From: a virus
Taxonomy: Duplodnaviria; Heunggongvirae; Uroviricota; Caudoviricetes
Length of the DNA: 25,462 nt
Direction: 5' to 3' (one strand)
IMG/VR virus record: IMGVR_UViG_2563366903_000022
A program made the position numbers. Each line of letters starts with the position of its first letter. Within the stretch, counting starts at the first letter, position 1. Of the stretch, positions 3,001 to 9,000 are shown piece after piece.

Positions 3001-6000
3001 AAACACTGGTGTCGCGGAAGGTTGTGGCAGATGAAGTAAAAGCCGGGGTAAGTATCACGTCGCCTGTTATCCGGAGTGCTGTTATTCAGAACGGGAACTT
3101 TCAGGTTGATTCTCAGGGTAACCTGAATATTGGTGGCCTTTTTAGTGTTACGTCGCAGGGGCAACTGACAATTCGTTACTCTAATCAGAATGTTGGGCTG
3201 GTGATCCGCAATGATAAAATTGAAGTTTATGACCAGAACGGACGCCTGGCTGTTCGCATAGGCAGGTTAAGCTGAGCCGGAGGCTGACATTGGCAGAATA
3301 TGGTTTTGCAATATACAACAGAAACAATGTTAATGTTACGGGCGTGCTTACTCCCATATTTTTCCTGGACAGGTTTACGGCGGAGTCGGGATCAAAAACG
3401 TATACGAATAAACCAGAAGGGAAAACATTGCAGGCAGTCTGTTCATTATTTCCGTGGAATAATGTATTTAAGGACCGGAAAGTACCGAAGATAACCATTA
3501 ATGGCAATACGGTGACATGGTCGAATCTTGAGCAGGGGATGGGGTCATATATTTATACATTCTGGGGGTGAGTTGTATGTATGGTTTAAGCATTACGAAA
3601 CCAGATGGCAGCTTGTGGATAAGCCCGGGGTTTACGCCTCAGTGTCTGATCAATAAGGGAACTATTCCGGCGACTGAGAAGGCTTTTTTTAAAACGTCAA
3701 TCCCGTCAGGAAAAAGTTGTTTTTTCTTTATCAGAACAGAGAAAAAGGCCGATGTCATGTACACACATGAACAGATTGATGGATATCATGCCTTAAGGCT
3801 TCATCAAATTGTCAGGGGAACGAATCCTGGTGTTACGACTGTTTATGCTTTTGCGAATATGGTTACTCAACCTTCTGAGTATGGTATTGCCATGTATAAC
3901 CCGTCGGGTGAGATGATTTACCATGGCGAAATGATGCTGCTTGACGCGAAGTTAATACCAGTTGATATCAAGTTTGAGAAGGATCTTGGATATCCATGCG
4001 CAATTATGCCTGCACTGGTTGGGTATTATAACTGGCAGCGTACACCTTATGACCGACCGATTTACACCACATCAACGGGGGCTACAGGAAATAAAATATA
4101 TTCCTGTGAGCATTATTCCGGTCGTGCAACATGGGATATTCGGAAGCCGTATATAGATAAAGTGTTGGTCATTAATTCATCAATGTATAACTGATATGCC
4201 TGTCAGTATGAATATTAAGTAATAAAACTAAATTCATCTTAGATAATACGGGGTTATTTTATTATAGGAAAAGTCTAAAAATGAAACATACCAGAATTAT
4301 TTTTGCGTGCACAACTTTTGTGATGAGTTTTGTAGCAGCCCCTGCCTGTGCAGCACAAGGTGACAGTACAGTTTCTTTCGAATACGCTCATCTTCAGCTC
4401 TCTGGACTGAACAATTTTGTTAAGGATTTAAGTCTTTATAATCTTGATACTTTTAACCGTTTTACAAACAGACACTACTTCAATTCAGGCGAATATGCAG
4501 ATGCTTCTGTCCGGGGGCATGATGGCAAAGGCAAATCTCCTCAGGGGATGAGCATCAGGTATCGTTATGAGATAACGGATGAGATTGGTGTTATAACATC
4601 TTTTACATGGGCGCGTTCTATGACTAATGCGCAGGCATTTATTGATATTAACCCAGGAGATGAATCCAGAGAGGTTAAAAATCCGGCAGCTTCAGCGAGA
4701 ACTGATATCAGGGCTAATTACTGGAGCCTGTTAGCGGGTCCTTCGTGGCGGTTTAACGAATACCTCAGTGTGTATGCAATGGCTGGTATGGGCGTAGCTA
4801 AAGTTACCGCTGACCTGAAAATTAAGGACAACATTAACAGTACCGGTGGATTTTCTGAAAGCAACAGTACGAAAAAAACAGCACTTGCATGGGCTGCTGG
4901 TGCACAATTTAACCTGAATGAAAGTGTTGCTATGGATGTCGCGTATGAAAGCTCCGGATCTGGTGACTGGCGCACGAGCGGGGTTGTTGTAGGTATTGGC
5001 CTGAAATTCTGATCTGTATCCGACAACATGTCATAACCCGCTGTGATGGCGGGTTTTTTGTTGCCCGTGCAGGGCAAAAATCGTAGATTATGCGCGGGTG
5101 CCTTTCGGCTGATGGCTGGAAGGTGAACCTGAAGGCCTGATGTGGAAAGGCCCCGAGTCAACTTTAATGTTAACCCGAGGCCCTGACCGTACAACCTTCA
5201 CAAGTAGTAGGTTAGCGCCTCTCCACTCAGGAGACAAGCGTTATGTCGCAAAAATCGCTCATCACCGTCACAATTTGTATGACGGTAATCTTCACCATCT
5301 GGATGTTACACGGCTCGTTGTGTGAGTTCCGGCTGAATTTGTGGGGAGCGGAGTTTGCGGCGTTCTTACAGTGTAAGCAGTAGGAAAACCGCGACGGGGA
5401 CGAAAGTCCCCGTCAACTGGTTGCTGAGGTTCAGCCGATATGGCACCCGTTTCAGGTGAGAGAATGGACGACAGAATTCTCCGGTATATGCAGCGTGTTG
5501 TGAGAAATTCCCGCAACCCTGAATTTATGAATGAAGTTAAAGACGCCTGCCTTAAAAAGCAGGCGTTTTGCTTTGAAGCGCCGGATGGTTTTCTGGTGCT
5601 GCGTTCTGTGCTCAGTGACGATGGTATCCCTTATGTTCTGGTGTTACTGGGCGTGTGTACGGGGAGTAAGAGTGTTGAGCGTTATCTGCCGGAGGTGAAG
5701 ACATTAACCCGCCTGGCTGGCGGACGCTGGGCCGAATTTCATACGGCAAGACGAGGATTTATCCGGCTGGGAAAACGTCTGGGCTTTGAGCGAATGCCGG
5801 ATGATGAGGATGGCTTCATGGTGTTCAGGATAGCAGTCTGACTGCCACTGTATTCATCATCGAGCGTAAACCCACATTGCAATTCACATTCTGACCCTGC
5901 TCCGGCAGGGTTTTTTGTTATCTGAGGAGCCATTATGGGCGGAAGTAAAGGTGGTGGTGATACCAAAGTAAAACCAACAGCAGCGCAAATAGCACAGGAA

Positions 6001-9000
6001 GAGGTGGCCTGGAAAGGGTGGCAGGATTACAAAAATATTCTCCGTCCGGCAGAAGATAACTTCATGAAAAAGGTCGATGACCTTAACAGTGAGCAGCAGT
6101 ACGAAAATATCGCAGGCACAACAAATCTTGGGTATCAGAAACAGTTTGGTGAAGCGCGAAGGGAGCTGGCGGGTAATCTTGCTCAGTCCGGCGTTGACCC
6201 ATCCAGTGGTCGTTTTAATGCAGTAATGGATGCAAATCAAAGCGACCAGGTGATCGGGCAGATTGACACGACCACACGGGGGCAGGTATCGCAGGCAGAT
6301 AAATATATTGCCGGGCTACAGGATGTTGCGGCTCTCGGTTCCGGTCAGAAGGCAGATGCGTTACAGAGTTTTAACTCCTTGGCTGACAGCAGTCTGGCAA
6401 AAGCCAAATCGGATGCACAGGCGGCGTTTACGAAACAACAGGGGCGAGCTTCTCTTGTTGGCGCTGGTCTGGGAGCTGTAGGTGCGTACGCGATGCATAA
6501 GGCTGGCGGTAACGGAGGTGGTGGCGGCGCTAAAACGCCAGGCACCGGCGCTAATGCTATTCAGCATCAGGCTCAGAACTGGAGACTGTAATTATGGAGT
6601 ATGGCAAATACGAAACTCTCGCAAGGGCTGGTTATTCAGGCGCAGCCCGCCCACAGGGTGACTGGCAGACATCCGCCGCGCTGACACGCCAGCAATACGA
6701 CGACTGGCGAACCAGATATTTGCCCCGCGTGGCAAGGCTGGCTGACCTTGGTGAGAACAACAGCCTGATGAATGCACAGCTTGCCCGGGTGGGCGGCCTT
6801 GCCACTTCCAGTCTCCGTACAGCGCAGATGGCGCAGGATAACCAGATGGCGAGATACGGGGTAAGCCGCCCGGATAATCCCAACAGTAACACACTGGGTT
6901 TGCGTAATGCTCTGGCAATTGCTGGCGCGAAAAATGGTATCCGTGAAGCAGAGCAGGATCGCCAGATGAACATACTGACGGGGGCTTCTGCACCTGCAAG
7001 ACAACAACTGAGTGTTGGCGGAAAACTGGTGTCAGCGTAAGGGGGCAATATGGGATACGGTTTACTGGATATTGCGAATCAGTCGCGGCGTGAGGCATTA
7101 CAGGGAATAAGTGATGCCGACAGACGACGTGAAGAAATTGAGGCCTCGAACAAACAGATGGCGGCGCAACAGAAAGCGCAGAACAAACAGAATATCGGCA
7201 CGGGAATTGGTACGGGTGCAGCTATGGGCGCTGCTGTTGGTGGTCTCCCCGGTGCGGCTATTGGTGCTGTCATAGGTGGTATTGCTGGTTCTTTGTTTTA
7301 AGGAGTGGTGAATGAGCGGATTTGCACAGGGTTTACTTGCCGGATTCAGCACGGTTGACCAGGCAATGACCCGTCGTAAGGAACTTGGTTTGCGAGAAGC
7401 ACAGCTTGCTCAACAACAGAAAAATAACGAGCGCGATTTTGAATTTGCACAGTCGCAGTTTGAACATAATAAAGACGTTGATCAGCGGAACTTTGATTAC
7501 AGAGCCAAAGTCGACGACCGTAATTATGCACTGCAGGAAAGGGAGTTTAACGCCAACCAGAATTACCGGAATGCGTCGCTGGGTATGGAGCAGCAGCGAC
7601 TCCGGATGCAGAAATACAACCAGCGACGGCTTGAGTATAACGATATGCTGGCGCGCGATCAGCCTGTGATGGCGGCGCTTGGAAAGGCTGTGGATGCTGG
7701 CGATCGGGATGCAGCAATGCGTCTTTACGGCCAGTTGTCAGAGGGTAATCCGCTGAGGCTGATGGCGAATGATGGCTATGTAGCGAAAGCGGGTCAGGCC
7801 GTGAACAACCTGCAAAAAATCTTTGATGACAAGCCGGACAGGGCGATCGCTTCACTCAATACCCCGGAAAGTCTTGATGCGCTTTCTGGTGTGTTTGCCC
7901 CGGAACTGCAACGGCGTATTGGCATGCCCGATTCAACCGGGAAAAAGACAATAAAAGAGGCCAGGATTGGCAGTATTGTACCGGCACAACAGGAAGGGTA
8001 CGTACTTATCGGCCTTGATCTCACATACAGCGATGGCTCCACCGCACATAAACCCGTTACGGAATACGGCAGCGCACATCCTGATGATCAAACCGTGCTG
8101 GCGATACCCGTTGATAAGGCTGTCGCTCAGGTCAGGGATCGCAGTAAATTCGCGGAAATTTCGAAAAATTACGGTTATTTTATGCCGAAGCAGCAGGGTC
8201 TTTCTGCGGATCAACTTCAGAAAGGAGCCAGCCAGGTAGCGATAAAAGTTGCACAGGACGGCGGTGATGCGCAGGGGGCAGTGACGCAATATTACGCCTC
8301 GATGGGACTGCCGCAGTATCAGCAGAAAATTCAGCAGCAAAAAATTCAGCAAGTGATTACCAGTTGGGCGGGGGATGATCCGGATAAGCAGGCATTTGCC
8401 AGAGAAGTGGCCTCCCGTCAGCCAGAAATGCTGGAGCCTCAGAATCAGAAATTGCTGGAAAACGGGTATGCGAATTTTCTCCGTATTCAAAAGGCTAAGG
8501 GGGAACAGGCCAGAGATGATAGTGCGGCCTCTGCATCTGAGTTTATCCGTGGTCTGAAACAGAATTACGCGCAGTAATTCACCCTTCCCGTTAATACCAT
8601 TTCCTGATACCCGGACATTGTGCCGGGTTTTTTTATGGAGTCTGTATGGCTTATTCCGATGAACAGCGCCCTGAAGCGCAATTTGGTAACCAGAACCGCA
8701 GCAGTCTGAACATTCAGCAGCCGGGCGAGACTGACAGCTATGATGCGTTTTTCTCCGATCCCAATCGCTGGAAGGACAACAGCACGTCGTTCAGCCTGGG
8801 CGATGTATTGCCAACTATGGGGAAAGGTGTCGCCCAGTCCATCCGGGGGACAGGGGAAATGGCCCGTGGACTCGGTGATGCGATGATTCAGAGTCCTGTA
8901 AAAACAGGGGCGCGTATTTTAAATGAGTTCAGCCGTATGGGGCTGCCGGGTGTCGCAACTGTTCAGGACATTTTTGCCGGTGGCAGCAAGGGGGCAGATG

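Follow-up and report, generated by a model that had tools for sequence, protein, structure and literature searches.

The 133-amino-acid (aa) gene, four small genes and 2790-aa giant gene at positions 5440-17018 of IMG/VR virus record IMGVR_UViG_2563366903_000022 (Caudoviricetes) probably form the internal ('ejection') protein module of a short-tailed phage of the 933W/Sp5/phi24B type, a reading to which we give a probability of about 0.62. The whole stretch analysed, 25,462 nucleotides (nt), is called the window below. Judged by its sequence, the window is the late-region end of a Sepvirinae prophage of this type, a podovirus. Altogether 186 phage records, mostly named as Shiga toxin (Stx)-converting, match the region at 80-96% DNA identity, and Sepvirinae is the taxonomy of both records among them whose classification was retrieved. 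The nearest record is GER2 (Oslovirus), with 96% DNA identity, and the window represents a variant lineage. The genes of the block are as follows.

5440 to 5841, plus strand: 133-aa gene (Sp5 ORF75, phrog_610), the first gene of the co-inherited block in relatives
5935 to 6591, plus strand: 218-aa virion protein (Sp5 ORF76/ECs1238; phi24B vb_24B_44, 'gp51'; phrog_611), ATG start, Shine-Dalgarno GAGGAG, 94% identical to vb_24B_44
6594 to 7040, plus strand: 148-aa virion protein (Sp5 ORF77/ECs1239; phi24B vb_24B_45, 'gp50'; phrog_596), ATG start, Shine-Dalgarno GGAG, 95% identical to the phi24B protein
7050 to 7301, plus strand: 83-aa glycine-zipper protein (Sp5 ORF78/ECs1240; phi24B vb_24B_46; phrog_594), ATG start, Shine-Dalgarno AGGGGG, 92% identical to vb_24B_46
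7312 to 8577, plus strand: 421-aa essential virion protein (Sp5 ORF79/ECs1241; phi24B vb_24B_47, 'gp48'; phrog_601), ATG start, Shine-Dalgarno AAGGAG, 85% identical to the phi24B protein
8646 to 17018, plus strand: 2790-aa polyvalent protein, the giant (Sp5 ORF80/ECs1242; phi24B vb_24B_48, 'gp47'), ATG start, Shine-Dalgarno GGAG, 90% identical to vb_24B_48

Lengths and order map one-to-one to ORF75-80 of Sp5 (VT2-Sakai; ECs1237-1242) and to vb_24B_43-48 of phi24B, with protein identities to the latter of 97, 94, 95, 92, 85 and 90%. The small genes ORF76-79 of Sp5 have the same lengths as those of the window (218, 148, 83 and 421 aa) in the same order. These are the same genes, and published knock-out phenotypes and virion proteomics apply directly to the genes of the window. 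An earlier reading made from the sequence only had described four co-directional genes with ribosome-binding sites and tight spacing; their coordinates were confirmed, the gaps being 2, 9 and 10 nt, followed by 68 nt before the giant gene. The open reading frames (ORFs) from the 218-aa gene to the giant all match PHROG families over their full length (E 8e-43 to 1e-201). These matches, the orthologues in Aeromonas and Vibrio phages and the peptides of the phi24B orthologues found by mass spectrometry show that the ORFs are real genes and not chance frames.

All four small-protein orthologues are present in purified phi24B virions according to the supplementary spreadsheet of a recent preprint (10.64898/2026.04.10.717836). 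The peptide-spectrum matches (PSMs) in this proteome are distributed as follows.

gp47 (giant): 10962 in total, 746 in the batch sample
gp48 (421 aa, labelled 'Transcription factor?'): 1634 in total, 179 in the batch sample
gp51 (218 aa): 523 in total, 82 in the batch sample
gp50 (148 aa): 129 in total, 83 in the batch sample
86-aa ORF (the 83-aa protein): 13 in total, 6 in the batch sample
portal: 2226 in total, 101 in the batch sample
nozzle: 702 in total, 42 in the batch sample
Lom: 23 in total, 6 in the batch sample

Three of the four small proteins are found at spectral counts similar to that of the portal or higher, and gp47 is the second most abundant virion protein by PSMs. The 133-aa protein was not detected in these virions. 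The gel peak of gp48 adjoins the slice in which the 409-aa capsid protein peaks, as fits an intact protein of ~47 kDa, and that of gp51 lies next to a 234-aa adaptor; for both, the slice position is consistent with an unprocessed protein of full length. Because gp47 is plentiful in virions yet absent from the electron cryo-microscopy (cryo-EM) map, the preprint proposes that it is an ejection protein housed in the head (10.64898/2026.04.10.717836). Its main text never mentions gp48-gp51 and assigns no density to them; only the giant is discussed, as absent from the reconstruction (10.64898/2026.04.10.717836). The spreadsheet label of gp48 derives from the GenBank note on vb_24B_47, 'similar to putative transcription initiation factor'.

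The genetic evidence comes from Mondal et al. (2016; PMC5155283), who deleted each Sp5 gene in frame. Mutants in ORF79 (421 aa) and ORF80 (the giant) gave no plaques and no lysogens and were complemented in trans; their heads looked normal and had packaged DNase-resistant DNA, and the particles were non-infectious (PMC5155283). The mutant in ORF76 (218 aa) formed plaques with strongly reduced lysogenisation (PMC5155283).

By sequence similarity and gene order, the genes of the block are strictly inherited together as a module. The collinear arrangement 133-218-148-83-421-giant stands directly behind nozzle and needle genes, without lom, in Aeromonas phage phiARM81mr and Vibrio phage 1.205.O. 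Synteny was counted on IMG/VR contigs holding a 421-like gene, the loci being searched with a 3-sequence alignment. Among distant loci (<70% identity), 218-, 148- and 83-like genes were found upstream in 31/31 and a 133-like gene in 30/31, and 21 of the 23 with room for it had an ORF of at least 1500 aa downstream. The corresponding counts for close loci (at least 70% identity) were 43-44 of 46, 45 of 46 and 43 of 44. The homologue searches returned mostly near-identical Escherichia coli or Aeromonas clusters, and the alignments are shallow. The annotated start of the phiARM81mr giant gene (L003 17555-29113) at 19541 is probably wrong; the frame is open from 17555 (3852 aa), just after the 421-like gene. 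Among the structural genes of the same phage, at 6876-8509, are insertions coding for a retron-type reverse transcriptase and for a '23S rRNA-intervening sequence protein'.

The composition that had been described from the sequence (the N-terminus MGGSKGGG, Gln/Ala-rich cores and a glycine zipper) was borne out by residue counts. In the 83-aa protein the C-terminus is a 35-residue uncharged stretch with 8 GxxxG motifs, ending in GSLF, and this is kept in the Aeromonas and Vibrio orthologues. The 83-aa family matches the glycine-zipper tail of P22 gp7 (...PWGAAIGGGIGLLGSLF; phrog_598) with an hhalign probability of 94% (E 1e-7), over the last ~35-55 residues of gp7 and with the exact C-termini aligned. 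The pattern shared by the two families is ...G(P)WGA.IG.G.G..GSLF. Control comparisons with the gp14, gp20 and gp16 families gave probabilities <0.5%, and none of 2000 composition-preserving shuffles reached the score of the 83-aa/gp7 hidden Markov model comparison. The 83-aa protein is proposed, on this similarity, to be a membrane-inserting subunit related to the gp7 tail.

The 218-aa protein consists of 14% Gly, 15% Ala and 10% Gln, with the family motif GGxKGGG at its N-terminus, a Gln/Ala-rich core predicted to be helical and an uncharged Gly/Ala segment near residue 172. It is homologous to the virion proteins Bcep22 gp70 and GP4 277-aa (blastp 6e-7; cross-hits between phrog_611 and phrog_8003). 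The mature N-terminus of gp7, KGGKGGADK, resembles its MGGSKGGGD. No similarity to the gp7 family over its full length was found (no PHROG cross-hit with phrog_598, annotated 'DNA ejection'; BLASTP E 0.32), and the gp70-like and gp7 families gave an hhalign probability of 3.7%. Bcep22 gp70 and GP4 277-aa each hold both the GGKGGG motif and a Gly-zipper tail ending in F, and the gp7-like features appear to be split between the 218-aa and 83-aa proteins in the window. We propose the 218-aa protein as a membrane-proximal ejection protein. The 148-aa profile matches Bcep22 gp70 (2e-6) and the 218-family profile matches the Vibrio protein Vib_17 (2e-6); these profile matches mark the 148-aa family as paralogous to the 218-aa/gp70 family in the central part of the latter.

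The 421-aa protein, for which the role of a periplasm-spanning partner of the giant is proposed, is the most divergent of the set (81-98% identity across phages). Its family is small and fast-evolving, with 75 representative clusters at E <= 1e-3 among 1.84 billion. An AlphaFold2 model has an N-terminal helix of ~115 residues, further domains that are helical and one small beta element (mean predicted local distance difference test score, pLDDT, 61; predicted template modelling score 0.32), and that of the 218-aa protein has four long helices (pLDDT 48), a confidence too low for it to enter the Foldseek search. Low-confidence, all-helical predictions of this kind fit metastable ejection proteins and prove nothing. 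The most conserved motif of the 421-aa family, (V)TYxDGSxAxKPVT at residues ~235-260, is like the 'VTYPDGST..PVT' repeat of the Gram-positive surface protein 6s5w, and the top match in the Protein Data Bank (PDB) was a 22-residue 'VTYxDGST' motif (E 0.16). Homology to Bcep22 gp74 and GP4 509-aa was considered and not established, as only an N-terminal motif of 28-29 residues aligns (E 0.006-0.01).

The giant protein carries LPD5, LPD1, MuF_C and LPD38 domains, all above the Pfam cut-off and with PHROG matches too, and two HExxH motifs at residues 1278 and 1545. It unites several LPD or effector domains in a single chain and is encoded amid virion genes, which makes it a polyvalent protein in the sense of Iyer et al. 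(2017). The MuF-C domain is PBECR, a predicted RNase, according to Iyer et al. and a metallopeptidase according to the phi24B preprint (10.64898/2026.04.10.717836). Residues ~1842-2788, including LPD38, align with the Vibrio, Bcep22 and GP4 giants, and the remainder is variable.

These features suggest the following mechanism. The 218-, 148-, 83- and 421-aa proteins and the giant would be made late and built into the head; presence in the virion was observed for the phi24B orthologues, and the head is their presumed location. Upon release of the needle they would pass out by way of the portal-nozzle channel before the DNA does. Membrane insertion, as proposed for P22 gp7, T7 gp14 and DEV gp73, would be the task of the glycine-zipper proteins, namely the 83-aa protein and, through its C-terminal segment, the 218-aa protein. 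The helical 421-aa protein might extend the conduit over the periplasm and couple to the giant at its conserved last ~900 residues, much as gp72 of DEV binds the C-terminal domain of gp71. The giant would complete the passage of the inner membrane and bring its variable enzymatic domains into the cell.

A number of observations weigh against an ejection module or limit what speaks for it. The match between the 83-aa and gp7 families falls in a low-complexity Gly-rich segment. An alignment of the N-terminus of the 218 family (GGxKGGGD...) with gp7 residues 22-59, which start just past the 20-residue leader removed by OpdA, would speak for kinship with gp7; its hhalign probability of 25% (E 7.5e-4) is weak and below significance. 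Smith-Waterman comparisons of the 218-aa protein with gp7 against shuffles (z 3-6) were discarded as unspecific, the 421-aa protein used as control also reaching z 4. By hhalign nothing was found between the 421-aa protein and P22 gp20, the giant C-terminus and gp16, or the 133-aa protein and gp14. T7 gp13-16 have no sequence similarity to the block, with no Pfam hit and profile searches at chance level, and none was found for N4 gp50-53, where the best result, the 218-family profile against gp52 (7 bits, E 0.002 in a 12-sequence database), is not meaningful. No fold similarity to these proteins or to P22 gp14, gp20 and gp16 was found either. Foldseek with the 421-aa model returned nothing below E 0.1 from the PDB. 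Nor did the PDB yield anything significant when it was queried by sequence and profile with the giant, the 218-aa protein, the 421-aa protein or a profile built from 47 sequences of the 421-aa family. The sequence-only reading had likened the small proteins to podophage internal proteins of the T7 or P22 kind; virion presence outside the cryo-EM model, gene order and the gp7-like tail favour this.

Further points on that side come from the virion data and the genetics. Location in the head is deduced only from absence in the cryo-EM map. Copy numbers from batch PSMs divided by length, with the portal fixed at 12 copies, are rough spectral-count estimates good to an order of magnitude only, at ~36, 32, 48 and 6 for the 421-, 218-, 148- and 83-aa proteins and ~22 for the giant. 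The calibration proteins came within about 2-fold of their true numbers, given in brackets (nozzle 6.3 (6), adaptor 1 10.5 (12), fibre 22 (18)), save one adaptor that was 5-fold off (adaptor 2, 2.4 (12)). In P22 gp7 is essential, unlike ORF76-78 of Sp5. The ORF77 and ORF78 mutants are wild-type-like and the ORF76 deletion still plaques (PMC5155283). Partial redundancy between the paralogous 218- and 148-aa proteins, and between the two proteins with a glycine zipper, could explain these tolerated single deletions. In the preprint, a 'transcription regulation factor' and a 'bacteriocin homolog' were dismissed as contaminants for no other reason than their annotation (10.64898/2026.04.10.717836); the dismissed transcription factor may be gp48, or else Q.

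Among the rival explanations, the small proteins could be loading or scaffolding factors for the 300-kDa giant, as in the P1 Dar system, travelling as passengers without a DNA conduit in a module that delivers anti-defence enzymes. The strict co-inheritance with the giant gene fits such a role, as do the polyvalent nature of the giant, the match of its LPD38 region to a 'DarB-like antirestriction' PHROG, the polyvalent-protein concept of Iyer et al. and the need for small virion proteins to incorporate DarB in P1 (summarised in the JC1 paper). ORF79 and ORF80 are essential, however, on the same K-12 host that produced the phage, where anti-restriction should be unneeded; the proteins have no similarity to Dar accessory proteins in PHROGs or Pfam, and the 83-aa protein, with its gp7-like membrane tail, rather suggests a role in penetrating the envelope. 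We therefore regard loading as the sole role as unlikely, although loading and conduit roles can coexist. It is quite improbable that the 421-aa protein, perhaps with its neighbours, is an external tail-assembly component. P22 mutants without ejection proteins still assemble tails, so the missing fibre labelling of the Sp5 mutants counts against an ejection module. The ORF79 and ORF80 deletion particles, with packaged DNA and normal heads, showed no labelling by anti-tail-fibre antibody (data not shown in the paper), and for this reason Mondal et al. originally assigned both genes to tail formation (PMC5155283). The missing labelling may be an indirect effect, with tails unassembled or lost in the absence of internal proteins; the phi24B tail is fully accounted for without gp48, gp50 and gp51, gp47 is reported absent from the model, and many copies of a 300-kDa protein cannot fit a 22-nm tail.

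The view that the block serves lysogenic conversion or encodes 'cargo' (helpers around a bacteriocin-like peptide, or a secretion or cargo system of a new kind), with no link to virion function, has very little probability left. Databases do annotate the 83-aa protein as 'bacteriocin', and terminator-like hairpins flank the block as they do around moron genes. As a class II bacteriocin the protein was rejected, since the Pfam Bacteriocin_IIc hit (19.3 bits against a cut-off of 27.1) is compositional, covering the Gly-rich tail only, and the neighbours are virion genes; the match to Gly-zipper_YMGG is below the Pfam cut-off as well. Moreover, phages of other genera inherit these genes together with structural genes, the gene products are in virions and one of the genes is essential for infectivity. 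The sequence-only reading had entertained a novel cargo system, which had to be given up: the homologues are conserved virion proteins of a known phage family, with ORF79 and ORF80 essential, and for that reason the block is ordinary structural or infection equipment. It had also found ejection proteins unexpected next to a lambdoid J/lom tail end, which was mistaken, as phages of the window's type are short-tailed, the J-like protein is the needle and lom is non-essential.

The internal protein module favoured here adds modestly to what was on record. Genes, phenotypes and virion presence had been published, which makes the gain incremental. What is new is that the block is strictly co-inherited, that the 218- and 148-aa proteins are paralogues, that the 'bacteriocin' has a gp7-like tail and that the small proteins are recognised as genuine virion components.

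Three hairpins lie in or beside the block.

5893 to 5918 (stem 5893-5912), plus strand: hairpin with T-run between the 133-aa and 218-aa genes, 8-bp stem, -16.5 kcal/mol, z -4.2
8609 to 8634 (stem 8609-8628), plus strand: hairpin with a run of seven T between the 421-aa and giant genes, 6-bp stem, -11.9 kcal/mol, z only -1.8
17026 to 17049, plus strand: hairpin just 3' of the giant gene, 10-bp stem, -20.5 kcal/mol, z -5.3, the strongest of the three

Terminators had been proposed at the first two sites and a weaker hairpin at the third (17027-17048). Hairpins do occur at each, and the first has a convincing terminator shape. The second is weaker, and the third, in spite of its strong stem, is not a canonical intrinsic terminator because it has no U-tract behind it and was not picked up by the terminator scan. 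The scan found 21 sites where 12.9 +/- 4.5 were expected, which makes any one terminator-like site weak evidence. The further proposal that the terminators define a discrete module is poorly supported, as relatives fuse the 133-aa gene to the block and Q-antitermination is to be expected. In the Aeromonas and Vibrio phages the 133-aa orthologues (Aer_64 and Vib_15) are encoded only 7-8 nt upstream of the 218-aa orthologue, which leaves no room for a hairpin, so the 5893 hairpin is a feature of the window's lineage. Late transcription in lambdoid Stx phages is Q-antiterminated, and for this reason the hairpins should probably be read through and not delimit lytic transcription units. A terminator-like hairpin is also found in the gap between the 421-like and giant genes of Vibrio phage 1.205.O (L002 15919-16033), and a very stable one in the same gap of Bcep22 (L004 25986-26061; -39.6 kcal/mol, z -8.1); GP4 has no clear hairpin in the corresponding gap. 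The recurrence before the giant gene suggests that attenuation of the transcript, or stabilisation of its 3' end, sets how much giant is made relative to the small proteins. Rfam at its gathering threshold gave no RNA family inside the block. The GER2 record (L009, MG710528.1) has a 12-nt 'attR' at 17509-17520 inside the terminator region upstream of the 218-aa gene; nothing is annotated past the 421-aa gene, so that the record lacks the giant ORF. Automated delimitation of the prophage has probably produced this artefact.

A GNAT acyltransferase, as encoded at the same position in Bcep22 and GP4, was considered for the 133-aa protein and rejected (no Pfam hit, hhalign probability 0.1%). With no GNAT similarity, acylation of the GGKGGG N-terminus by this protein is without support.

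Upstream of the block lie the tail genes.

298 to 2001, plus strand: tail nozzle gene, 567 aa, 95% identical to phi24B vb_24B_39 (gp57, 'nozzle' in the cryo-EM study)
1998 to 3275, plus strand: gene of the central tail needle, 425 aa, J-like domain at the tip (Pfam Phage_Tail_Tip, PHROG tail fibre families)

The nozzle gene has homologues among the nozzle genes of GP4, Bcep22 and the Aeromonas and Vibrio phages, and it opens the conserved order nozzle - needle - internal proteins. The needle protein is 91% identical to phi24B vb_24B_40 (gp56, the central fibre or needle). Small ORFs and then lom, a non-essential outer-membrane gene, lie 3' of the needle gene, and the full order that the window shares with the Sepvirinae references is nozzle - needle - small ORFs - lom - 133 - 218 - 148 - 83 - 421 - giant. 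Phages of the 933W/Sp5/phi24B type are podoviruses, short-tailed and not siphoviruses, and in the phi24B cryo-EM study the head has T=9 geometry and the 22-nm tail consists of portal, two adaptors, nozzle, six fibres and needle (10.64898/2026.04.10.717836). About 40% of the particles in that study are reported to have ejected spontaneously. Between lom and the 133-aa gene sits a hok/sok-type toxin-antitoxin moron (5096-5383, plus strand), flanked by terminator-like hairpins on both strands. Its sok part, at 5096-5254, is an Rfam match that stays below threshold (35.6 bits, gathering score 59, E 3.5e-6); its hok part is a Hok-like ORF of 46 aa at 5243-5383, the counterpart of which in phage Lyz12581Vzw is annotated 'MokW-like host killing'.

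The region 3' of the giant gene differs from Sp5 and phi24B in that the window's lineage has a large serine recombinase and further accessory genes downstream. A gene for a SocA/Panacea-domain protein (17169-17615, plus strand) is followed by an overlapping minus-strand pair at 17704-18348 and 18333-19559, encoding a ParB_N-like protein (E 0.0016, below the Pfam cut-off) and a protein with PAPS_reduct and DUF3440 domains. We take this pair to resemble IbrB/IbrA. Bcep22 and GP4 also hold a PAPS-reductase-like gene, there inside the internal-protein block. An Rfam match to the small RNA family sRNA-Xcc1 (20435-20523, minus strand; 71 bits, E 2.8e-11, above the gathering score) lies directly upstream of an AntA/P22_AR_C antirepressor gene (19756-20394, minus strand). 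Where Lyz12581Vzw has an annotated tyrosine integrase behind its giant gene, the window has the recombinase (547 aa, 21044-22687). Beyond it, to 25462, there follow a Dit-like gene on the minus strand, what may be part of a tape-measure gene (TMP_3, scoring far under the Pfam cut-off) and an IS1 transposase. The part from 21044 to 25462 is probably the prophage end abutting a remnant of another prophage.

In its layout the block resembles known ejection systems. The genes form a co-directional cluster beside the nozzle gene, their sizes rise towards the last gene, and the 83-aa glycine zipper and the Gly/Ala segment of the 218-aa protein would provide a small, putatively membrane-active subunit. 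The order small - membrane - mid-size helical - largest behind nozzle and needle is that of P22 14-7-20-16, T7 13-14-15-16 and N4 52-51-50. P22 has its ejection genes gp7, gp20 and gp16 (with gp14) directly after the nozzle gp10 and the needle gp26, rising in size as here, and differs in that its last gene encodes the 609-aa gp16 and not a 2790-aa polyvalent protein; three of the four small genes here are non-essential. T7 gp14-gp15-gp16 (with gp13) occupy the same place after the tail-tube genes, a small membrane protein being followed by a helical mid-size protein and then the largest one. The internal core proteins of T7 are packed in the head and ejected to bridge the envelope; its ordered core on the portal, on the other hand, is not described for phi24B.

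The Dar system of P1 (DarB with Hdf, DarA, DdrA, DdrB and Ulx) likewise combines a giant head-internal protein with small virion proteins required for DarB, but P1 is a myovirus, Dar is non-essential, and no homology was found beyond the PHROG hit of the LPD38 region. In the Schitoviridae, N4 (gp52-gp51-gp50) and DEV (gp73-gp72-gp71) encode together a small pore-forming protein, a helical protein of ~520-650 aa and a multi-domain giant virion protein of >3000 aa. In DEV, where the genes are in one operon, the helical protein of the periplasmic tunnel is arranged around the virion portal and is bound by the giant through its conserved C-terminal part. By analogy, DEV would be the closest functional model for the block, with the difference from N4 that the giant here is polyvalent (LPD, MuF_C, HExxH) and not an RNA polymerase. 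The rare T = 9 geometry is also known from Pseudomonas phages distantly related to N4 (10.64898/2026.04.10.717836).

Bcep22 and GP4 (gp68-gp70-gp74-gp75, with a DarB-like giant) have an equivalent layout with a homologous nozzle, 218-aa/gp70 protein and C-terminal ~900 aa of the giant; they differ by GNAT and PAPS-reductase genes inside the block and by the lack of a separate 83-aa gene. In the Bcep22-like phage JC1, gp64, gp68 and gp69 (the gp70 homologue, the pre-giant protein and the giant) are virion-associated by mass spectrometry. Tentatively, and at somewhat less than even odds, the T=9 podovirus lineage of Stx phages, Aeromonas and Vibrio relatives and Bcep22/GP4 might have a distinct ejection apparatus, composed of a gp7-like set of small glycine-zipper and helical proteins (218, 148 and 83 aa, two of them paralogous), a 421-aa adaptor and a polyvalent multi-enzyme giant in place of T7 gp16 or the N4 virion RNA polymerase. 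One machine would then serve both as DNA conduit and for delivery of anti-defence enzymes, with the 83-aa 'bacteriocin' and possibly the 421-aa 'transcription factor' as genuine subunits. If the block is an ejection apparatus, it offers, for phages that spread Shiga toxin genes, candidates for a pore, for a bridge over the periplasm and for the carrier of injected enzymes, and the misleading 'bacteriocin' and 'transcription factor' annotations would be corrected. It would also link the Stx phages mechanistically to P22, T7, N4 and the Bcep22/GP4 group.

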